Assembly: GCA_030390025.1 (NCBI GenBank)
Contig: JASTWF010000138.1
Location: forward strand, 372,001-436,000
DNA length: 64,000 nucleotides
Reading direction: 5' to 3'
From: Squalus acanthias
Lineage: Eukaryota
Shown here: piece after piece, positions 3,711 through 62,661 of the stretch
How positions within the stretch are numbered: the stretch's first letter is position 1
Layout: every line of letters starts with the position of its first letter
Position numbers and translations under genes: made by a program
Notes under the pieces: model-generated
The model's database searches: none
What the model saw: only the letters and a program-made list of their open reading frames with translations
What the model was told of the DNA's origin: nothing

Positions 3711-4018
3711 AACCCAGCCGGCAGGATAACCTTTCTCAGGGGCCTTCACTAGCAACAGTGAGTGAAGGAGATACTGTGCTGTTGCCCTGTAACTACCCCG
3801 TCATCTACACAGCCGCTAACCTATTCTGGTATGTACAGTACTCGGGAACAGGCCTGCAGTATATGCTCGTCAGACACACTGCTGGGAATGAAGAGAACGC
3901 ACCGGCCTTTACAAAGCGGTTTTCTGCCGTACAGGACAGAATGAACAAAAAGATCCCTTTGAACATCACACACACCCAGCTGTCTGACTCCGCCGTGTAT
4001 TACTGCGCGGCTATGTAG
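3711..4018 (+). CDS. TCR alpha/delta variable exon V1
   Basis: Acceptor ctgtttccAG at 3710. EPSRQDNLSQGPSLATVSEGDTVLLPCNY...LFWYVQ...RFSAV...LNITHTQLSDSAVYYCAAM* has the canonical Cys/Trp/Cys and DSAVYYC. An in-frame TAG directly precedes the RSS. Confidence 0.92.
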
Positions 4019-4057
4019 CACGGCGTTACATGAACCCTTGACACTGGTACAAAAACT
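4019..4057 (+). other. Recombination signal sequence (23-bp spacer) of V1
   Basis: Heptamer CACGGCG (4019-4025), 23 nt, nonamer ACAAAAACT (4049-4057). Confidence 0.9.
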
Positions 4058-6227
4058 ACCAGTCCCAGGTCTTTTCAGGTTTGTGAATTCCCCGCTTCTA
4101 CCATCCCCCCACACAGAAAACCGGCACAGTGGGCGGACTCTCCGTCTACACCTGACTTTAATGATGGAATGTGTTGTTAACTTTGGGACTTCCTGAGATT
4201 GTGAAAGGCGCTGTATAAATGCAAATTCTTTCTTCCTTTCTTTTTATTTACTCTATAAGAATGCTCTTATAATATTGAATGACCTTTTTTAAATCATCCC
4301 GTGACCTTCTCTAAGGAGAACAATTCCAGCCACCCCCAGTCTCTCCATATAACCGAAGTCCCTCATCCCTGGTATCATATTTTGGTCCGATTTGTTTTAT
4401 ACCGTGTCCTCGCTCCTGTTTAGGAAAATGCTCCCATGATTGATTTGATGGCCCAGCAGGTTAAGATCATAGTTCCATCTCCAGGTCTGTGCTGGTGGCA
4501 GTCGGGTTAATGACTGCGCTTAGCGAATAGTGAATTCACATTATCATTCGGCTCTGTCAGTTAACAGTTCAAGTTAAAATAATAGACTTTATACATATTC
4601 ATCTTCTTCAATAACACAGAAAAGATGCCTCCTGGTGGTTAGGATAGCGAATAATAGTCTGTGTTTCTTCAATAAAAGTGACAGCTTGGGTTAGAATAAT
4701 TTAAATCTTTAACCGTATAAATTAGAATTAGAATTATACATGCAATTGACTAGTTGAAGGACATTCGGGTTCTCAGACCGGATCCCTCTACAGACCAGGT
4801 GTGAGCTTCCCTACTGCAGACAACACCTCACTCATTTTCTCTCGGGGAAACGGTCTGCTCAAATATTCCATAATCTCCAGAAGTAACCGTGATGGATACC
4901 AGAATATCCATCCATAATCACAGTTCTCAGAGCCGCCACAGACAGCGCTCCCACATTTAGGCACAATTAGAAGCCCGGGGTTCACAAATAACATCGGACA
5001 AGGACTTCCGAGTGACATGTTAACCTTCGTGTGCATAGTTACCTGAAGATCTTTTGGATCAAAGTGAATGTGGCGCCACTCTTCACCGACTGAGAGAGGA
5101 GAGGGACAAGAAATGGAATTAATTCTGCCATATACCAAACGCACGGTGGCGCTAATGTGCTTCTTTTTCAAATGCAAATAGTGACTGCAGCATTTTGCAA
5201 TCGTTATTCAGTGTTAGCCTTAACCAAAATCTAGAATCTTAGTAACTGTGTTACGGTTATTCTTTTGAAACGTAACATTGAATTCGATCATATTATGATC
5301 GCTGTTGGATGAATGTTCTCTTACTATTAGATTATTGACTAATTCTGGTCATTACTCCTTACTAAATCTAGTATAGCCTACCCTCTTGTTGGTTGTATAA
5401 CGTATTGCTCCACAAAACTAACTTGAAAGCACTCAAGAAATTCACTACCTTTCTGGCTTGAGCTACTCTGCTCTTCCAAATCTATATGAATATTAAAGTT
5501 ATACAATTAAAACTATTCTGCTTTTGCTACAAGCCTCACTAATTTCTGAATTAATGCATTCAGCCAGTTAATCGCTGCTGTCAGGAGGCCTGTAGACAAC
5601 TCCAATTACAGTTTTACTCCACTTTTATTCCTCATTTCTAACCATAGAGTCTCACTGATTGCTTTCCCTCACCTACATTCTCTCTTACTAATATTGCAAT
5701 CGTATTTTTAATCATAAAGGCTAATCGAGGGTCAGCTCCTAATTTGAGAATCCAGCGAAGTAAAGCAAATCGGTGCGACACCTGCTCTTGTTTTAGGGAG
5801 GGAAGTGCAGACTGGCACCGCTTCTGCTTTGTACCTTAGGAGTACCTGAAGTTTGCAGCGCTGAAGTAGGTCATTTCCCCCTCAAAACTGAAAGAGGCCA
5901 TTCGGCCCACCATGTTTGTGCCAGGCCTTTGCTGGAGTAATCCAAATATAGTCAAGCTTATCCACACTCTCCATAGTCCTGTATCCTCTCCTCAAAATGC
6001 CATCAGCTTTCAGACTTAGAAAAGACATCTACTCCTTTTGACAGAGGACTCCATCATTTTAATAACTATATGCATAACCATCTGCAGTTTATGAAGGAGG
6101 AAATGTAACGATATAGTGTAACTATGAAGAAAGCTCAACCACGGAGAGTCTGCACAATAGCACAGCAGGTAATGAGATACTGCTTGGCCACAACACTTGG
6201 ATGTAACCTTTCGCTTCACAGATTTTA

Positions 6228-21225: not shown

Positions 21226-21264
21226 CACAGTGTAATAAGGAGCGACAGAGTCCGTACAAAAACC
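21226..21264 (+). other. Consensus RSS (23-bp spacer) of V3
   Basis: CACAGTG, 23 nt, ACAAAAACC (perfect consensus). Confidence 0.96.
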
Positions 21265-21306
21265 GGGGCTGCTTTTCGGATCGTATGTTTAGGAAGAAGA
21301 ACGAAT

Positions 21307-21490
21307 GGGGTAGATTTTCAATTTGCGCGATAGTGTAAACCGGATGATAGAGAATCGGCAGCCCGTTTTACATCTGTGCTGATTAATATTTCCATTGACA
21401 TCAGTGGAACTACACATCGGGGGAGATGTAAACCGGGCTGCCGACTCGCTCTCACCGGATTTACACTATCCCAGAGTGAAAATCTACCAC
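21307..21490. mobile_element. Hairpin MITE (~184 bp) with AAT flanks
   Basis: GGTAGATTTTCA...TGAAAATCTACC with internal inverted arms (gatagtgtaaa/tttacactatc, tcggcagcccg/cgggctgccga). AAT on both sides. Confidence 0.8.
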
Positions 21491-21639
21491 AATGTGCATT
21501 TGTTCAGCTCGTTTCAGGTCTCCAGCGCCCTCCAAAGCGCTTTAAAATTGGTGAATTGCATTTTGAAGAGTAATTACTGTTCTTCGGACGCAAACATGGT
21601 CGGCATTTTGCGCCGAGCAGGATCCCACCAACAACAAAC

Positions 21640-21990
21640 GAGATAAATAAGAGGTTCACTTGTTTTGGGGGTGCAGGTTGAAGGGGGTAAATTCAAATCC
21701 AAGCTGCAGAAACAATATTTCAGTGAATGAGTGGTCAATCTATGGGACAGGCTCCCTCGGGATACGGTGGAAACAATTAGTGTCGATTCATTCAAATGCA
21801 AATTGGACCGATTTCATTCATAGAATAAGATTTTGGGAGACAGTATATGAGTGATTTGAGACATGACGTGTGATAAGTGCAGAATGCTTGGGAGGAAGAG
21901 GTGACTTTGGACCTACAGTTTCCAAAGCTCTCCACCACTGGGGTTTTCCTCGCCTCATGTCTGGGTCTGTTGTAGACTCATTGGCCGCGA
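21640..21990 (+). mobile_element. Degenerate CR1-type 3' fragment
   Basis: gggggtaaattcaaatcc...tttcagtgaatgagtggtcaatctatgg...ttcaaatgcaaattggaccg resembles a CR1 C-terminus (F..RVVNLW). Confidence 0.55.
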
Positions 21991-22900
21991 ATTTAATTGT
22001 GGAGGCGGGATGGGAGCGGGACAGATGGTTTCCGCGTTCCGATCCCGCCCCCAGCTGCCTCCGCTCTGCAGATGTGATTTTACCGGCCAATTAACAGGAA
22101 GCTGGTCTGATGACGTCATTTGATGACGCGACATCTGCCGGTTTCCTTAAAGGGACCATGCACAATTTTATTTTGACAGTTGATCTGTCAGTGTTTGATA
22201 GCATTGAGGTGCTGCAAACACTGACAATCACTGCACAAAGGTGAACACTTGCACCCAGGCTCTCCAATGACTCCCTCCATATGCTTATGGAGGGAGTCAC
22301 AGCAGGCAGGGAGGTTCTCTTCCCTTCTAAGGGCGGAAGAGTCCTCCCCAGGATACCAACTTACCTGGAATCTCCACCCAACCCTCTATATCTATATGAC
22401 TTCCCCATCTCACTAGCCACCCTCACACTCACCCTCATCCTACTGCAAGCATACCAACTAACAATACACAAGGGTAGGCACTTGAGAGGTTTAACCAATG
22501 TCCATGTGAAGTTTCTGGTAATGTGTTGTCATACAGTGTAATATCCTTTACCAAAAATGCCCCTTATTGGACAGATCTGTACGCACATTGAGAAGTGTTT
22601 TACTCCCCCTCCCCCCGCCCCGCTATAGTGAAGAGTGTGCATGGAATGGCTTGGACATTAAAGGGATGCTTCACGTGCTGGTGAGGGATGGTGTCAACCT
22701 GGCGCATCATGTGGCAGCCAGGGTTCACAGCATCAAGTGAAGAAAATCTAGCATTGGTGGTGCCATCCTGGCCACCCGGCCAGCAATTTTGTCAGGGGCT
22801 GATGCCCTGTGTCCAGTGCTGCTTCAGGTGGGTGAGGATGAGGTTGGCGCTCCTGGTGCTGGTGTTGCTCTTGTGGCTGGTTGTGGTGCTGCCGCGGCTG
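21985..22900. mobile_element. Harbinger/PIF-like DNA transposon relic
   Basis: Shares tgacgtcatttgatgacgcg...gccggtttccttaaa..gaccatg and downstream blocks with the element at 35138-36800. Confidence 0.65.
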
Positions 22901-23051
22901 TACTCGGATTGTTGTGCTTGATATAATGTACTCGATTGTAGCGCTTGCTTTAATGTATTCGGATTGTAGCGCTCTCTTGCTATTCGTCTAACAGTATTAT
23001 TGGATATTGAAGTCTCTTTAAATAGACTCGCTGGACTTGTTTCCCTTTCAG

Positions 23052-23300
23052 GTGACTTCAGTCAGAGAATAATAGAGACCAATTTTAGTGAGTAGGAGGA
23101 TCGTCAGTCTGTCACCAGCACCTGGAATTTCCACGGTGACTAGAAATTGGGTAAACTATCGGTATCCAGAAGGAAATCACAGTCGGAAAACATTCCTCTT
23201 GGAGGACGATTTGTTGAAAGGAAGTGGTTTACTTTGGGAATGAAGGATCTGGGGATTGAATAAAGCGCCACCTACCGCTGCAAAGCTTAGTGTTGGTTAG
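23052..23300 (+). pseudogene. Decayed NAR/VNAR-like (NAR-TCR V-like) variable exon
   Basis: Acceptor tttccctttcAG at 23051 and donor G|GTAAGT at 23301 define a 249-nt phase 1-1 exon. One frame reads GDFSQRIIET...QSVTSTWNFHGD*KLG...SENIPLGGRFVERKWFTLGMKDLGIE*SATYRCKA*. It has VNAR-type GGRFVE and YRCKA, no CDR2, and several stops. Confidence 0.7.
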
Positions 23301-23366
23301 GTAAGTCCCAAAGAACATACAGTGGATTCTGCCATCCAAAGTATATCGACACAACTCCGATATATC

Positions 23367-25256
23367 ATAAAAACGTAAGAGCCTAAGAAATAGGAGCAGG
23401 AGTAGGCCATACGGCCCCTCGAGCCTGCTCCGCCATTCAATAAGATCATGGCTGATCTTCTACCTCAACTCCACTTTCAAGCCCTATACTCACAACTCTT
23501 GATTCCTTTATTGTCCAAAAATCTATCGATCTCTGTCTTGAATATACTCAAAGACTCAGCATTCACAGCCCTCTGGGGCAGAAAAAATTCCAAAGATTCA
23601 CAACCCTCTGTGTGAAGAAATTTCTCCTCATCTGAGTCCTTAATGGCCAACCCCTTATCCCAAGACTAGGTTCTAGACGCTCCAGCCAGGGCAAACCGCC
23701 TCTTAGCCTGAACCGTGTCAAACCCTATAAAAATTTCATACATTTCAATGAGATCGCATCTCGTTCTTCTGAACTCCAGAGACTATCGGCCCATTCTACT
23801 TAATCTCTTCTCAAAGGACAACCCTCTCATCCCAGGAATCAATCCAGTGAACTTTTATTGCACCCGCCTCTAAGGCAAGTATATTCTTCCTAGGTAAGGA
23901 GACCAAAACTGTGCACAGTACTCCAGGTGTGGTCTCACCGCAACCCTATATAATTGCAGCAATACTTATTCCAAATCCTTGCAATAAAGGCTAACATGCC
24001 ATTTGCCGCCCTAATTGCTTGCTGTAACTGTATGCTAAAGTTCTGTGATTCGAGTATAAGGACACCCAAATCCCTCTGCATACCAACATTTATTAGTCTC
24101 TCACCTTTTAAAAAATATTCTGCTTTGCTATTCTTCCTACCAAAGTGGATAATTTCACATTTCCCCACATTATGCTCCATCCGCCACCTTATTGCCCACT
24201 CACTTAATATGTCTCTATCCATTTGCAGGCTCTTTGTGTCCTCCTCACAAGTTAGTTACCCACCTAGCTTTGTATCGTAAGCAAATGTGGATACATAGGC
24301 CCGAAAATTAGACCTAATACGCGAGAGTACGCACTGTGTACTCTCCCGTATTAGTTCCAGAATTGCCGGTTTCCTGCATGCACTGCGCATGCGCGGGAAA
24401 CCGGCACTTCGTGTATTGCAAAGGGGGCGGTTCTTAAGTGAACTGCGTGCGCGCTACAGGTTGCGCGCACGCAGTGCACTTAGTTTTTTTTTCAGGTTTG
24501 AACGCGCAGGTAAGTGGTGAAGATTTTACACATAAAGAAAGCAGGCGTAGGACCCCCTTTTAACAAGGTAAGTAGTTAATTAAGTGTTATTTTAATTTTT
24601 TTTCAACAGGTATATCTTTTTTAGAGACTTTAAAGAAAGGTAAGTTTATTTTTATAACTTTTAAAAAGATTTTAAATTTTTTCAAAAATTTAATTTTTTG
24701 TTTAAAGTGGTTAATTTATTTAACTATAGTTATTTTATTAATGCGATGGCTTTTTTTAAATTTAATTGAGGTTTAGCTGTTCTTTTGGGGGCTTGTAGTA
24801 TTCATAGCTTTGACAGCCCTTGCTGTCAAAACTAAATATGAAAGATGGTGTGCTGCCATTGGCTCTAACTGAATCACGTGATCCCAGAGCTCGCACGAAC
24901 TAATTGCGCCTCAGGGACACGCAAGCACTGCACGCTGGCAACAGGGAGAGGCCCTGAAACTGAAGTTCGTGTGGGCCCAAAACAAAAAGGTAGGCGCGGA
25001 GTGCGATATCGCGGAGAATCCTTACCCCCGCGGGAACCATCGATGTTTAATTTCTGGGCCATTAACTCGATTACCTTATCTAAGATTGTAAATAGCTGAG
25101 ACCCAAGCACTGATCCTTGCAGCACTCCACGAATTGCACCATGCCATCCCGAAAATGACCCGTTTATTCCTACTCTCTGTTTTATGTCCGTTAACCAATC
25201 CTCAATCCATGTTGATATATTACCCCCAATACCATTAGCCCTAATCGTGCGTAACA
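23367..25256 (-). mobile_element. CR1 LINE fragment (RT 3' half) interrupted by a MITE
   Basis: SEWAIRWRMEHNVGKCEIIHFGRKN and KQRVGINGSFSGW...QGSVLG. The 3' end is near 23370. Confidence 0.85.
24298..25060. mobile_element. MITE family A copy 2 (inverted relative to copy 1)
   Basis: GGCCCGAAAATT...AATTTCTGGGCC. The internal sequence is the reverse complement of 13801-14563 with high similarity. Confidence 0.85.
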
Positions 25257-26149
25257 CGGGCAGGATTGTACCATCCCAAATATATCGGCACAAATCCAGC
25301 AGGATTCTACATCCCAAATATATCTACACAATCTCGTCATTTATCTGCCATCTGAAATATATTGACACAACTCCGGCAGGATTCTACCGACCCAAATACA
25401 TCTATCGAGCTCCTCGTAAGCTGATCCTGATATTTTATGCTTAACATTATCAAATCGAGAGGTATGTATAATTTGTAAATAATATATTGGTTTCAGTCTA
25501 GTTTTTTCCCAAATATTTGTGGTTCTAAAGAAAAAGGCACACACAAAGTGCATAAACAATAAAGAGGATGACAAAATCTGATGAACGAATAAAGAAGTTA
25601 AAAAGTCAATTCGAAAAATAAAGAGGAAATCTGAAATGAAAATACTAAAGGATATAAAAAGAAATAGTAATGTATTCTATCGGCACAAAAGTAACAAAAG
25701 GAGAATTATGATGTCGACAGAGCCACTAGAAGATAAGTAATGTAAACGCAGAGGAGATGATATTGACAATGATACTGAATAGGTACTTTATTTCAGTTTT
25801 CCCTGAGGAGCAACGAAAAAATGACAAACATTAAAGTTTTCAGCTGGGATATTGTAACAGTGAAGATAGAAGAAAGGAGAGACTAGAGAAACAATCCAAA
25901 CTTAAGGAGGACAAAGTCCTGGTTCCATATGGTTTGCATCCGTAGATACTCAAGACACGATGGAGGAGACAACAGAGGCACTAGTGTCCATGTATGAAAA
26001 ATTAATAGTGCCAAAGGGCAAATGTAATTGCTATGGTCAAAACTAGAGATAGAAAAAATCCAGGAAAGTGCAGACCAGTTCGCTAATTTCACTGAAAAAT
26101 GCCACTTTATAAAATAGTTATTAAGAACCTCATTAAATAGAACTGTTGT

Positions 26150-26470
26150 TCCTGGTGGGAAAATGGGGAAAGTTGGTTCAGTTTGGCGATAAATAAAAAG
26201 CTAGTATCAGTAAAAGTGACAGTGATGCTGTCCGTTTGCCGTAAAAACCAACTGGTTCCCTAATGTCCTTTGGAAGGAAACCTCCCATCCTTACTCGGTC
26301 CGGCCTATATGTGACTCCAGTCCCACTCCTACGTGGTTGAACTTTAACTGCCCTCTAATGTGGACCAGCACTCAGTTATAACAAACAACGATTCAAGAAG
26401 AAGTCCCACCACCACCTTCTAAGGTGGACCAAAAATGCCAGTTTTCTCAGTGATGCCCAGATCCCGAGAA
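26150..26470 (+). mobile_element. SINE fragment, same family as 45310-45710
   Basis: ctagtatcagtaa...gtaaaaaccca.ctggttc.ctaatgtcctt..ggaaggaaa.ct.cc.tccttac..ggtc.ggcctatat.tgactccag. Confidence 0.7.
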
Positions 26471-26859
26471 GTTATTTTTATGTGAAGAAATCCAATCAAA
26501 CTGATTAATTTTAATCCGTTAATTTTATTGAAAATCTCACTGGCAAAAAAATAAATATTAACAACCTCATCAATTTGAAACTAAACAAGATAATTCAGTG
26601 TCACATTGAGTATCACATTGAGTATAACTATTACACCGTGGTCATTGACTTGTCTCTCCATTTTTACAACATACAAAGCTATAGATACACTCAATAGCAC
26701 ACACAAATAGCAATCACAATTGGACGGTCGGATAAGCTGAATTTCATGTCACAAATGTAATACAAAGGAAATGTAATAGCTGCTCATTTACTGATTGTGT
26801 ATAATTGGGAGCACATTTGTTTCACTTGAGTGAACTGTGTAACATGATCCGATTTACAT

Positions 26860-27110
26860 TGGTCGATGGAAATGGTCCTCCATTGAACGCAATAAAGAAG
26901 ACAATCCCGTTGCTCTTTCGGCAGCTATAGGACGGAATATTTAACCGGCAATTTGCCGTCAACAACACAGCAGAGACCAATATTGTTGATGTTAAACAGA
27001 TGGCAGACATCAATGGCGCCGTCATTCAGTGAGTCATTTCACCTGTGAAAGAAATAAAATAAATGATAAAGGGTGATTTTATGTGTACATATTTGTACTC
27101 ATATTGTACT
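26860..27110 (+). pseudogene. Highly decayed TCR Vdelta/alpha-like exon, truncated by a CR1
   Basis: EDNPVAL, then after a frameshift GSYRTEYLTGNL...QQRPILLML...APSFSESF (26920-27039). This aligns with V1 EGDTVLLP-CNYPVIYTAANL...APAFTKRF. The FWY motif is deleted and there is no YYC or RSS. Confidence 0.45.
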
Positions 27111-27114
27111 CATG

Positions 27115-27500
27115 TTTTCATTAGAGCAAAGGAGGTTGAGGGATAATTTGATAGAGGTGTACAAGATTACGACGGGTTTGGATAGGCTAGACGGGGAAAG
27201 CTGCTTCCACTAGTTGATGGTACAAGGACTAGGGAACACAGATTTAAGGGGGGTTGTGAGGAAAAACTTCTTTACGCAGCGACTGTTGAGGACCTGGAAC
27301 TCGCTGCCGACGGAAGTGGTGGAAGCGGAGACACTCAATGTTTTCAAGAGGAGACTGGATAGGCACTTGAGGGAATAAACTTGCAGGCTACGGGGATAGA
27401 GCCGGGGAATGGGACTGACTGGATTGCTCGACAGAAAGCCGGCACGGACTCGATGGGCCGAATGGCCTCCTTCTGTGCCGTTATGACTCTATGACTCTAT
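27115..27500 (+). mobile_element. CR1 3' end, same subfamily as 10815-11217
   Basis: Near-identical to the 10815-11217 tail and ends in (tatgactc)2. Confidence 0.88.
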
Positions 27501-28429
27501 ATTATGTACCTAAAAAATTACAGTCAACAAAACTCGGAGTTCTATCAGCACCTCTTGAACTGTACTAATGTATCTTCTATTATTGTGTTCTTTCATATTT
27601 AATGCACAGTTATCATCTGATTTGAAATAAGATTCCAAATGATATAAAAGGAACCAATTGCACCCGAACTGGTATCCCCTGTTCTAGAGGTTTCTCTGTG
27701 AATGAACTAAAACTGCGGCTGAAGCTGTATTGATCACAAGAGATTGGAGAACAGAGAACGTGTGAGGTATTTTCTCTCCAGTAAAATCTCTTGAGCCAGT
27801 TCATTACACTGGGCGGGGGGTATTAGACAGTGCAGAATTTTTAAATGAATTTGCAAACTGTTTCAGATTTGCTGGCAATAAGTGTTAATCTTAATAGTTT
27901 CCGAAAGCTGACATATTCCGCTCTTCTTCCTCCACCTAGACAGCGATTCACTGTTTGACCCGAGCAGCTCCATTCCTCCCGGCAGCTGCCGCCTCTTTTC
28001 CGCCTCTTCTTCATTTGATTGACAATCGCGACCGCGCGACTAACAGAAATAGGACAAAAACATCTGAATGGGTTACAGTTGTTGCTGGTGACGTATGTCA
28101 GTGAGAGGATTCATGGAGTGAGGGGTGAAAGCAGAAGAGCAGCTGCCCCAATTAGCCCGGGAGAGGGGGGAGGACAATCCACGCAGCGTGGCGTTAGGAC
28201 AAGTGTGGGGGGCCGAAATATTCAGCGGGACCTGGCGAGAGGAGAGCGGAGAGCTCCAGCAGAGGATCTGCGCTCAGCGACCAGCGACCGCCGCCTCTCT
28301 CCCTTCGCAGCGAGCGGGGGCCTGGGCTACGCGACAGCTGCGACCGTCATCGCACAGACCATCGGGATGAGGGGAAACAGAGGTCCGAGTCGGGGCCCGA
28401 GCCGCCAGGTTTCTCAGCTCGATCCAACC

Positions 28430-28565
28430 TTTAAGCGACAGTGTATTTTTCTTTTTTCTTTTTTAAACAAGAATTTTTTTAATCCCGGGGATTATTTATG
28501 GTGGACCCTTTGAAATCTTCGCGCAAAACCCGAGGGGCCCGGGGGCCCCCGCTTGAGAACCCCTG
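28430..28565. mobile_element. hAT (Charlie-like) terminal fragment
   Basis: Ends TTGAGAACCCCTG, the reverse complement of the CAGGGGTTCTCAA hAT-Charlie-type terminus. The other end was not found. Confidence 0.5.
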
Positions 28566-28590
28566 GTCTAACCAATGTTCAATACAAGTT

Positions 28591-30312
28591 GACGAAGGAG
28601 CAGCGCTCCGAAAGCTTGTGATTTCAAATAAAGCTGTTGGACTATAACCTGGTGTTATGCGACTTCTAACATTTGTCCACCCCAGTCTAACACCGGCATC
28701 TCCACATCATGGCTACTATCGACACCACAAACTGCCGGCTCAAAGTGGAGAGGATCTCCAAGAAGATCGCGCATATCGACACAGACATCAAGTTTCTACA
28801 GAGATGCAAGAAAGCAGACAAGATCCCGAAAGGACTACAGATCACGAACTCACTCAAGACGCCATACAACACAGACTACGCTGAGAGACTCTGCCGTCGT
28901 ACCTCTCGCACACTCCTCAACCATCTCGTACACCAGCTCTACAGCAAACGCCGCAACCTCGAAACCAAGATAGAGTCCATGCTCTCAGCCTGTGCTCAGG
29001 ACACAGCAGACCAGTTACGAGACACCGCCAAACAGACGAGGCAACGGAACTACGCTGCCTACATGCACACCAAGAACAGGAAACTTGAGAAACTCGGCAT
29101 CACCACCAGCAGCAACCAAGCCTCCCCCGGTACCACGGTTGCAACCACAGGGAAGTCCATCGTCAACTTGGCCGACCACACCCTTCAACCAGACGAAATC
29201 GAAGTTCTCAGCCGAGGGCTCATTTTCTGCCCCACCACCAAAATGAACCCCATCGGTCTCGCGGCAGATGCAGAGGAATTCATCAGGAGAATGAGGCTCT
29301 GGGAATTCATCCACGAATCCCAAGATGTCAGCAGCGAACCCAATGAGACAATCAATGATCCAGAACAGCAGACAGAGGGACCCGCAGTGCAGCAACCGAA
29401 GAAGAAAGAGTCAGATTGGACCCCTCTAGGGATCGCTGCCCTAAGCTTGACATGTATGCTCAAGCTGTCAGGAGATGCATCAACGCCAGAATCATCAGCC
29501 GCACCCACAAGACAGTCCAGAATGTCAGCCGAGCACAACGCAATGCCATCCACGCTCTCAAGACCAACCGCAACATCGTCATCAAACCAGCGGACAAAGG
29601 AGGAGCCATCGTCATACAGAACAGAATGGACTATTGCAAAGAAGCATACCGACAACTGGACAACCAGGAACACTACAGACAGCTACCCGCAGATCCGACC
29701 AAAGAACACACCCGCCAAGTCAATAGACTGATCAAGACCTTCGATCCAGACCTTCAAAGCATCCTACGCGCTCTCATCCCACGTACTCCCCGCGTGAGAG
29801 ACTTCTACTGACTCCCAAAGATACACAAAGCCAACACACCCGGACGTCCTATCGTATCAGGCAACGGAACACTGTGTGAGAACCTCTCTGGATACGTCGA
29901 GGGCATCCTGAAACCCATCGTACAGGGAACCCCCAGCTTCTGTCGCGACACTACAGACTTCCTACAGAAACTCAGCACCCACGGACCAGTTGAACCAGGA
30001 ACACTCCTCGCCACGATGGACGTCTCGGCACTCTAACCAGTATCCCCCACGATGACGGCATCGCTGCGACAGCCTTAGTACTCAACACCAACAACAGCCA
30101 ATCTCCAGACGCCATCCTACAACTCATTCGCTTCATCCTTGACCACAATGTCTTCACCTTCGACAACCAGTTTTTTACCCAAACACACGGAACAGCCATG
30201 GGGACCAAATTCGCACCCCAATACGCCAACACTGACGAAGGAGCAGCGCTCCGAAAGCTTGTGATTTCAAATAAAGCTGTTGGACTATAACCTGGTGTTG
30301 TGCGACTTCTCA
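28591..30312 (+). mobile_element. Penelope-like retroelement, truncated, with 77-bp terminal direct repeats (hammerhead-like core) and an 11-bp TSD
   Basis: Direct repeats at 28591-28667 and 30234-30310. TSD CAATACAAGTT at 28580-28590 and 30313-30323, inside a - strand CR1. ORF from 28709 has VLSRGL.FCPT, IVIKPADKGGAIVI, LPKIHK...GRPIVS and GTAMGTKFAPQYAN, with frameshift/stops. No YxDD or GIY-YIG. Confidence 0.92.
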
Positions 30313-30494
30313 CAATACAAGTTTAGCAGAACTTCTCTACTTTTCAATTCTATCTCTCCAGAAATAAACCCCAGTGCTTGTTTTGCTTTTCATGGCCATA
30401 TTAACCTGCTTCGCTACTTTTAGTGATTTGTGTGTTTGTACCCCGAGATTCCTTTAGATTCTTATTTTCCCAGTAATTCGAAGGATTTTAGAAT

Positions 30495-32180
30495 TCAGCA
30501 AAGGATGTCCAAAAATTGTGAAAGAGAGAAAAAATAGAATGAGTGTAAATTAGCAAGAGGCATAAATACGGATTGTAAAAGCATCTGTAGGTATGTAAAA
30601 AGGAAGAGATTCGCGAATGTAAGCATGGGTCCCTTACAAGCAGAGACGGGATAAATTATAATGGGGAATAAGGAAATGGCAGAGACATTAAACAAATACT
30701 TTGTATCTGTCTTCACGGAAGACACAGAAAACATTCCAGAAATAATGGGGAACCAGGGGTTTAGTGAGAATGAGGAACGTAAAGAAATTAGTATCAGTAA
30801 AGAAATAGTACTGGAGAAAATTATGGGACTAAAATCCGACAAAACCCCTGCACCTCATGGCAATATCCTAGGATTTTAAAAGACTTTAAAGGCTACAGAT
30901 ATAGTGGACTCATTGGTTTTAATCTTTCTGTATTTCCATCTTCCAGAACGGTCCTCGCGGTAGCAAAAGTAACCCCGCTATTCAAGAAAGGCAGGGGAAA
31001 GAATACAAGGAACTATAGACCAGTTAGCATTCGATCAGGTACCACACAAGAGGTTATTAAACAAAATTAAGGCTCATGGGATTGGGGGTAATATATTACC
31101 ACGGATTGAGGATTGGTTAACGGACAGAGAACAGAGAGTAGGAATAAACGGGTCATTTTCGGGTTGGCAGGCTGTAACTAGTGGGGTACCGCAAGGATCA
31201 GTGCTTCGGCCTCAACTATTCACAATCGATATCAATGATTTAGATGAGGGGACCGAGTGTAATGCATCCAAGCTTGCTCACAATACAAAACTAGGTGGGA
31301 AAGTAAGTTGTGAGGAGGATGCAAAGAGGATGCAAATGGATATACACTGGTTAATTGAGTGGGCAAGAACATGGCAGATGGAATATAATGTGGAGAAATG
31401 TGAAATTATCCACTTTGGAAGGAAAAATAGGAAAGCAGAATATTTGTAAATGGTGAGAGATTGGGAAATGTTGGTTTCCAGACGGAACTGTGTGTCCTTG
31501 TACACGCATCACTGAAAGTTAACATGTAGGCACAGCAAGCAATTGGGAAAGCAAATAGTATGTTAGCCTTTATTACAAAATTATTAGAGTAAAGACATCT
31601 TACTGCAATTATATAGGGTCCTGGTGAGACCACACCTGGAGTATTGTGTACAGGTTTGGTCTCCTTACCTAAGGAAGGATATACTTGCCATAGAGGGAGT
31701 GCAGCGAAGGTTCACTAGACTGATTCCTGGGATCGGGAAAAGTTCTATGACGAAAGATTGAACAGACTATACTCCCCAGAGTTTAGAAGAATGAGAGGTG
31801 ATCTCACTGAAACCAATAAAAACTTTACAGGGCTTGACAGGGTAGATGCAGGGAGGATGTTTCCCCTGGCTGGGGAGTCTAGAACCAGGTGTCACAGTTT
31901 CAGAATAAGGGGTCGGCCATTTAGGACTGAGATGAGGAAAAAAATCTTCAACAAAGGGTTGTGAATCTTTGGGATTCTCCACCCCAGAGGGCTGCTTTGA
32001 TGAATGTTTGAGTACATTCAAGACGGAGATAGATATATTTTTGGACTCTAGGGGAACCAAGGGATATGGGGATCGGGCGGGTAGGTGGAGTTGAGGTACA
32101 AAATCAGCCATGATCTTATTGAATGGTGGAGCAGGCTCAACGGGCCGAATGGCCCACTCCTGCTCTTATTTCTTATGTTA
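30495..32180 (+). mobile_element. CR1 LINE ORF2 remnant
   Basis: MAETLNKYFVSVFTE, GVPQGSVL, EWARTWQMEYNVEKCE and a CR1 3' tail. Confidence 0.88.
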
Positions 32181-61751: not shown

Positions 61752-62143
61752 TCATTGACAAGAATTGACGGTGTCCATCAGAACAAGGGAAATGTTCACA
61801 AAACTGGGTTTACCGCTGGATTTATTAACCGTTCTGTTGATGATCTTCAAGGGGATCGCTTCATGTCCCACCACACAGGAGTAAGAAGCGCCGCTGGCCC
61901 ACTCCTCCGCTGCAATGGATAACAGGCTGTACATGAAGAAGGAACTGCTGCCGTTCTCCGCCATCACCTCGGTGTTCTTGTAGTTGCCGGAATTCACCGG
62001 CTTGTCATTGACGGTCCACTTGACGAAGATCTCTCGTGGGGAGAAACCTCTCACTAAGCAGGTGAGGCTGACGAACCACTGAGCGGAGACTCCTTCTGCC
62101 GGGGGCAGGAGGACAGACACGGACGGTTCCCGCGGATCTTCAA
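61752..62143 (-). CDS. IGHM: IgM heavy chain Cmu4 plus secretory tailpiece exon
   Basis: Acceptor ttctgcAG, then (V)[14 protein letters not shown]...[17 protein letters not shown]...[25 protein letters not shown]...[23 protein letters not shown]. It has the tailpiece NIS glycan site and penultimate Cys. The internal donor AGCG|GTAAAC at 61813 serves the membrane form. Confidence 0.96.
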
Positions 62144-62661
62144 CTGCAGAACAATTACAATAAAGGTCAATAAACTGGAGAATTCCAGAGACAATGAAAC
62201 CGGCGGTTAGATGTGAGAGAAATGTGCTTTGCGCTGAATTTTAAAGGACTCCCTTTTCCCCTCTGTGTCCTGTCCGGTTTTCCAGCCCGGAGCAGAGGGA
62301 GATAGAATCCTTCTTTCTGGGAGCTTGAAGAGTTGGAATGGAAAATTACATGGAATTCACATCATAGAAACAGACCATTCGGCCCAACTGGTCAATGCCG
62401 CTGTTTATGCTCCACACGAGACTCCTCCCACCTTACTTCATCTAACCCTAATAACATATCCTTCTATTCCTTTTTTCCTCATTGACTTATCCAGCTTCCC
62501 TTTAAATGCATCATCTCGGGTCCCAGAGGTTTTAATTAGTGGAATTACCCATTGAATTATCAGAGCAGTCCATTAAAACACTGAATAGAACGAATTGGGC
62601 CGTGAACAAGCACCAGAAATAGTCACAGAGTCTCACTCATTGCTACAATCTCACCGCTCAC

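Follow-up and report, generated by a model that had tools for sequence, protein, structure and literature searches.

A dead VNAR-type V exon in an antigen-receptor complex of Squalus acanthias: a probable relic of a NAR-TCR cassette

The locus, the pseudo-exon and its copies

The window, that is, the whole stretch of 64,000 nucleotides of Squalus acanthias DNA analysed here, carries four TCR alpha/delta-type V exons, three of which are followed by a 23-RSS with at most two nonamer mismatches. The TCR V exon at 3731-4060 reads TAG right after Cys2 in all three copies of the region and is then followed by a weak RSS. On the strand opposite to the TCR V genes, at 61770-62180 (minus), lies an IgM-like last constant exon with a secretory tail, whose V and J are located past the window end. 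The constant-domain motifs present in the window all lie on the opposite strand, and none was found on the same strand as the exon under study. The locus is an elasmobranch antigen-receptor complex; in the accessible part of PMC12227049, such a complex is described as linking IgH clusters to TCR alpha/delta V genes. Outside the window, at G000:C449:547728-548050 (G000 being the genome assembly), an IgH V has its D and J joined in the germline, with WGQGT in frame. A retroelement-like insert at 28590-30320, possibly Penelope-like, contains a 346-aa ORF and has direct repeats at both ends. A minus-strand exon candidate at 26400-27050 was discarded, as Pfam gave nothing meaningful for it.

The feature of interest is a pseudo-exon within this complex (Table 1). 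The sequence-only reading had described an exon of 249 nt and phase 1-1 between a strong acceptor and GTAAGT, and such an exon is indeed present at 23052-23300, with its reading frame running from 23054. The translation quoted at the time, the change of the first Cys to TGG (Trp, 23123-23125) and the several stops were all reproduced, and four stops were counted, at 23093, 23141, 23261 and 23288. The alternative two frames hold four and seven stops; with all three frames closed, no three-domain TCR-delta chain is possible from the pseudo-exon. CGT at 23102-23104 occupies the site of the a-b loop Cys codon of NAR-TCR V, and no Trp is found at the WYRK-motif position, in a stretch that is decayed and poorly aligned. 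A 15-bp deletion near 23215 is private to the window copy. The shortness of the region around GGRFVE and FTL is partly due to this deletion.

Table 1. Features in and around the pseudo-exon, in window coordinates (the slash in G/GTAAGT marks the exon boundary)
Feature	Position	Strand	Basis or remark
High-copy repeat at the expected place of the leader	22760..22900	.	1916 candidates; 40 scored, 91-100% across many contigs
Splice acceptor (pyrimidine tract + AG), leader intron remnant	23039..23051	+	Sequence; position as in intact NAR-TCR/IgNAR V exons
Decayed VNAR-type V exon up to Cys2-Lys-Ala	23052..23287	+	Trp at Cys1, CGT, 3 stops, deletion
V 3' tail and likely D-derived bases	23288..23317	+	TAG stop first; holds donor-like G/GTAAGT, 23300/23301-23306
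Decayed recombination signal, TACAGTG and first 39-bp unit; likely D-type 3' 12-RSS	23318..23359	+	9-nt exact match; marginal PWM score
LINE-like high-copy repeat with inner element, splitting the 39-bp array	23377..25255	.	Minus-strand RT-like ORFs, other copies, heavy repeat cover
Tandem 39-bp array, 3.7 copies	25259..25402	+	Identity to first unit: 28, 16, 28 and 23 of 35 nt
Likely relic of NAR-TCR D 3' RSS spacer/nonamer and D-J flank	25380..25527	+	One match in G000

A genome search found three matches to the pseudo-exon: the window copy, a second one 87 kb further along the same contig, and a third on contig C29, which is either a separate duplicate or another haplotype. The four stops and the TGG are common to all three copies, and the gene was therefore dead before the duplications. 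Over 11212 columns, the window copy has 146 private substitutions and the others have 55 and 48, which indicates that the window copy split first and, in turn, that GTAAGT is ancestral among the three. The donor reads GTAACT in the C29 copy only; the idea that this was the sign of a recently gained donor was rejected, the window copy being the outgroup and GTAACT derived. Window positions 1-53000 match G000:C449 458-499 kb and C29 8.468-8.512 Mb as a segmental duplication of a TCR V block with an identity of about 97-98%; the C449 and C29 copies of the block are without window 24.7-31.8 kb and have 31.85-33.8 kb inverted.

Kinship with NAR-TCR and IgNAR V domains

The sequence-only reading had proposed a homology search against VNAR sequences, and this search returned VNAR-type matches. 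The read-through translation of the window copy had 33 matches in the PDB at E<=10, the best at E 1.1e-4, and the top 29 of the 33 are named VNAR, new antigen receptor, antigen receptor or nanobody; by name or alignment, 29 of the 30 best PDB matches are shark V-type domains. The undeleted duplicate matched a VNAR in the PDB at E 5.7e-9. Pfam gave no match for the read-through of the window copy, and for the undeleted duplicate it gave V-set at E 0.0076, under the curated cut-off. When the read-through duplicate served as query for a word-indexed protein search, no candidate came up. Among 1.84 billion protein representatives, all ten matches were shark proteins with an ordinary NAR-TCR-like V, 35-56% identical, several of them extending into J and supporting V, and no intact family closer than these was found among the same representatives.

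The spacing between Cys1 and Cys2, 57 aa in the undeleted copy, compares with 61 in IgNAR, 62 in NAR-TCR V and 72 in a neighbouring TCR V. Together with the PDB matches, it identifies the domain as a VNAR-related V without CDR2, and on these sequence grounds the exon is a VNAR-type V pseudogene. TAILV segments are IgH-like V segments with a full CDR2 in the TCR-delta locus, and the CDR2-less anatomy argues against membership of that group; the accessible part of PMC12227049 names TAILV.

By identity, the exon is about equally close to both single-domain families. The undeleted exon is 60-66% identical to 20 NAR-TCR V exons (L033, which has no usable acceptor, was excluded) and 62-64% identical to six IgNAR V, and a single NAR-TCR/IgNAR pair taken for comparison is 61% identical. 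A DNA tree of 18 NAR-type rows and five outgroup rows gave a trichotomy in which the pseudo-exon joins NAR-TCR with support of 59/23, and AU tests on this tree rejected no grouping (p 0.46 for the IgNAR grouping). In a protein tree with other sharks, from which one protein without the anchor motif was omitted, the pseudo-exon falls on a very long branch outside the 16-row NAR-TCR clade (93/81, unstarred).

The two ends of the exon differ in affinity. Diagnostic bases divide 23:5 between NAR-TCR and IgNAR in two 5' blocks and 10:20 in the 3' block, a contrast with a Fisher p of 2e-4 for blocks picked after inspection and with the middle part unused. In the 3' 39 codons, five diagnostic residues are IgNAR-like, one is NAR-TCR-like and three are tied, and in an unrooted tree the 3' part lies on the side of IgNAR (99/99). 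This contrast, along with the AU result for the IgNAR grouping, would suit an IgNAR V pseudogene that had been displaced, or a chimera of IgNAR and NAR-TCR that arose by gene conversion, instead of a NAR-TCR lineage of its own; the chimeric part is compatible with the best explanation given below. As a rival, this reading is distinctly unlikely, given that the 5' end, the a-b loop codon and the tail are NAR-TCR-like, that NAR-TCR-type bases are scattered through the 3' block (10 of 36), and that the IgNAR V genes found on C29 (16.7-18.0 Mb) are remote from the pseudo-exon copy on that contig (8.49 Mb). In anchored alignment, the flanks of IgNAR V, D1 and D2 showed no resemblance, and near the pseudo-exon no IgNAR D, J or flank likeness was found, its neighbours being TCR V and opposite-strand IgH C exons. 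Regarding the a-b loop, CGT is one change from TGT, the Cys codon of intact NAR-TCR V, whereas IgNAR has GGA. According to the accessible part of PMC1845163, an a-b loop Cys, a defining trait, and a lack of the canonical Trp of the WYRK motif are features of NAR-TCR V.

The mosaic would be expected from a basal lineage, from a chimera and from differences in rate alike. Among sites shared by NAR-TCR and IgNAR, the pseudo-exon departs from both at 8/31, 3/28 and 7/22 according to codon position, a pattern that would fit long decay after some time under selection. Descent from a NAR-TCR V cassette is most likely, and the exon does not have the features of a functional member. The proposal of a dead NAR-TCR V is supported by the PDB and protein-library matches, the TCR V setting and the NAR-TCR-specific 5' residues; against it, the 3' half is IgNAR-like and the trees do not put the exon within NAR-TCR V. 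As a tentative possibility, the relic might represent a lost third lineage of single-domain V, that is, a V-D-joined NAR-TCR cassette with an IgNAR-type 3' half, near the branch that gave rise to IgNAR V. It may also belong to a known NAR-TCR V family. A figure legend in PMC1845163 mentions four NAR-TCR V sets in the nurse shark. Two further sources may have a bearing on NAR-TCR V families, table S1 (PMC12227049) and Note XI (PMC3964593).

The 3' end: donor-like motif, recombination signal and D-type flank

Paralogues from the same genome served as controls. Searching G000 at the protein level yielded 38 matches out of 40 candidates, and the 30 loci fetched comprise the three pseudo-exon copies, six IgNAR V and 21 NAR-TCR V. 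The sequence-only reading had suggested finding intact paralogues and asking whether they carry an RSS or a donor; among the 21 NAR-TCR V loci, 13 end in a 22-type RSS, six are fully V(D)J-joined with J and donor, and two are V-D joined. Intact NAR-TCR cassettes are organised as V-22RSS / 12-D-12 / 23-J, followed by a supporting V. The notion, raised by the 22-spacer RSS, that the majority of NAR-TCR V are V-D joined was rejected, for the mapped cassettes show that this RSS belongs to V. Fully joined NAR-TCR exons have a VDGSGTVVTV J before the donor, and in the five with a short junction the donor comes 75 nt after Cys.

The joined loci offer observations of their own. The six fully joined NAR-TCR exons are L007, L011, L012, L013, L018 and L024 (G000:C29 6.8-9.0 Mb; C3620); junctions are near-identical in five of them and the leader pattern is matched by four. 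Four joined exons stand in tandem cassettes with the order rearranging V, J, joined VDJ and supporting V, which could splice into a four-domain chain. L028 and L030, together with G000:C29:8438966, are V-D joined NAR-TCR V that have kept the D 3' 12-RSS, and L017 is an IgNAR V joined to D1. In L029, the V tail finishes on its 3' side with the same bases as the end of its own cassette's D segment, which hints at conversion between V tail and D. In another shark, a Heterodontus francisci gene model (P0012, XP_067869961.1) has a NAR-TCR V+J unit twice in tandem, with the same junction in both, ahead of a supporting V, which suggests a germline-joined and duplicated NAR-TCR V.

In the pseudo-exon, 19 nt separate Cys2 from the GT of the donor-like motif, a stretch that starts with TAG and encodes no J-type G strand. 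The sequence-only reading had considered, as one option, that germline joining left this motif as a J-type donor; spelled out, the pseudo-exon would be a fully joined V(D)J exon that subsequently lost most of its J but kept the true J donor. The 7-mer G/GTAAGT is identical to real J donors of NAR-TCR and IgNAR, stands in phase 1 and is ancestral among the copies; its chance rate in random stretches is 0.002 per 30 nt, for a motif singled out after being seen and not beforehand, and fully joined NAR-TCR V exons exist in G000 (6/21). Nevertheless, only one of 13 bases before it is identical to a true J end, the distance from Cys2 is 19 nt and not 75, and the 70 nt after it have no likeness to nine J-donor flanks (p 0.29-0.74). 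An RSS-like heptamer and a D-type flank lie downstream of the donor, which is the wrong order for a J. Furthermore, the intact V of L014/L015 has GGTAAC at the same offset, and the tail of the pseudo-exon is identical to that of the intact NAR-TCR V L014 at 11 of 18 positions, as against 1-10 of 18 for eight other V tails. A surviving J donor is thus very unlikely, and GTAAGT is most likely a chance look-alike inside the V/D tail.

The other option offered, a non-rearranging VNAR-like exon, here conceived as part of a UrIg-like gene, is extremely improbable. Its splice sites at both ends, in phase, and the existence of a non-rearranging VJ gene, UrIg2, in the elasmobranch complex (PMC12227049, accessible part) would agree with it; the VJ domain of UrIg2, however, is one exon, whereas here there is no J or G-strand, all frames are closed, the constant-domain motifs seen in the window belong to the other strand, and on the 3' side there is an RSS-like relic. 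Excess conservation of the exon among the copies was not seen either, with 2 substitutions against about 5.5 expected from the flanks, a difference that is not significant.

The earlier statement that no RSS follows Cys2 is correct for a functional RSS, but a decayed heptamer, TACAGTG, stands at 23318-23324, 36 nt past Cys2. RAG requires the first C of the heptamer, and the pseudo-exon, whose heptamer is without it, cannot rearrange. At present, the exon gives rise to no protein and undergoes no rearrangement. Three contig sets presumed to derive from RNA gave no cover of the exon or of the neighbouring TCR V, and thus say nothing about expression. Scored as a 23-type RSS, the motif reaches 5.8 bits, a value equalled or beaten by 4.4% of 4998 random stretches and exceeded by all of 56 real RSSs (minimum 6.4, median 26 bits). 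The best RSS-like match has the form TACAGTG-24-ACACAACTC and could be the own decayed 23-type RSS (7+24+9) of a dead NAR-TCR-type V that was never joined, its D, J and supporting V having been deleted. The 39-bp repeat period, which is the length of a 23-RSS, and the 13 unjoined loci among the 21 of NAR-TCR type are in line with this account. It is nonetheless rather unlikely, as the 36-nt tail exceeds the tails of about 19-26 nt found in unjoined V, the flank behind the 39-bp array is D 3'-like, and likeness to V-RSS flanks is absent (z<=0.7).

The signs of a D-type flank are as follows. Nine bases, ACAGTGGAT, are those that start the NAR-TCR D 3' RSS, a coincidence expected at about 2e-4 in 45 nt by our own arithmetic. 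The first 39-bp unit alone had no significant alignment to 12 reference flanks. In a local comparison over 8.7 kb, the D 3' flank matched best at 25393-25527, directly behind the last unit (p 0.02, one of 20 tests). When alignment was anchored at the last unit, three NAR-TCR D flanks reached z 3.3-4.1, the nine other references stayed at z<=1.8, and between 0 and 14 of 20000 GC-matched positions attained the scores of four D flanks; these statistics of the V-D join are weak and were selected after inspection. An nhmmer profile of eight D flanks missed the relic, and in the vicinity of the locus there was no match to the nhmmer profiles built from D, J, V-RSS and IgNAR flanks. Of the three copies, only the window copy has kept the D-flank relic. 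Taken together, the D 3' signal probably abuts the V tail in a V-D join like those of L028 and L030, and the unit of the 39-bp minisatellite appears to derive from the recombination signal.

Other parts of a cassette were sought around the exon. No leader exon was found in 21264-23052; a signal-peptide-like ORF at about 22838 was rejected as a leader, for it belongs to a high-copy repeat. The intron remnant is marginally similar to the NAR-TCR intron, at p 0.04 for one of three NAR-TCR references, and the three IgNAR references are not significant. No J relic was detected in 23288-32000 (best p 0.18), and no supporting V scoring at least 11 bits lies behind any of the three copies.

Proposed history and comparison with known systems

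The best explanation, to which we assign a probability of roughly 0.6, is that the exon is a dead, orphaned NAR-TCR V relic whose V and D were likely germline-joined before decay. Under such a history, a NAR-TCR cassette with a V of divergent lineage would have been seated among the TCR alpha/delta V genes, and either germ-cell RAG activity or simple deletion would have moved the V tail beside the D 3' 12-RSS. Leader, J and supporting V would then have been lost and repeats inserted, the RSS-bearing 39 bp would have been amplified in tandem, and the whole block would have been duplicated twice once the gene was already dead. The V-D joined state has precedent in G000, in 2 of the 21 NAR-TCR loci (L028 and L030).

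The value of the relic is historical, not functional. The accessible parts of PMC12227049, PMC4279169 and PMC3964593 propose that a single-domain V moved from NAR-TCR to an Ig cluster, thereby making IgNAR. The combination of NAR-TCR cassette features with IgNAR-like 3' residues is the expected look of an intermediate lineage, and shark or ray orthologues could help to polarise the transfer; without them, the exon is an ordinary dead V segment. No description of a relic of this kind came up in searches of a literature consisting mainly of open-access papers, among them the accessible parts of PMC6795676, PMC7615758, PMC12907318, PMC3457774 and PMC3964593.

Four known systems provide a frame for comparison. 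NAR-TCR, reported on by Criscitiello in 2006, is a doubly rearranging TCR-delta of cartilaginous fish. The set of NAR-TCR V features used here was drawn from the accessible parts of PMC1845163 and PMC12227049. Like NAR-TCR V, the pseudo-exon is CDR2-less, is located among TCR alpha/delta V genes, starts with FSQ and has a QSxTxT strand; it also shares a codon left over from the a-b loop Cys (now CGT), a long 3' tail, a likeness to D-type flanks and, as far as the decayed stretch can be aligned, the lack of the canonical Trp. Unlike NAR-TCR V, it is dead, its leader, J and supporting V were not found, its nucleotide identity is about 63%, its 3' half is IgNAR-like, and it falls, on a long branch, outside the cross-species clade.

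With IgNAR V it has in common the GGR(Y/F)VESVNK and KDL motifs, a short Cys1-Cys2 spacing and a nucleotide identity that is likewise about 63%. It departs from IgNAR V in its NAR-TCR-like 5' half and flanks, in the absence of IgNAR D, J and C, in the apparent absence of the C-strand Trp, and in not being part of a V-D-D-D-J-C(NAR) minicluster. With UrIg and UrIg2, compared by their published description, it shares the gene complex and the presence of an exon of Ig V type flanked by two splice sites, whereas it has no J strand, open frame or C1 exons and its V is of the VNAR and not the UrIg type.

Finally, germline RAG joining is documented for Ig genes of cartilaginous fish in the accessible parts of PMC4279169 and PMC5192425. 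Unlike the joined Ig genes of these reviews, the present exon is a pseudogene whose join is deduced from decayed sequence. Like germline-joined genes, it has a likely V-D join with the D 3' RSS kept, as in L028 and L030 of the NAR-TCR type and L017 of the IgNAR type. If true, this V-D join would be one further instance of a T-cell-receptor gene joined in the germline.
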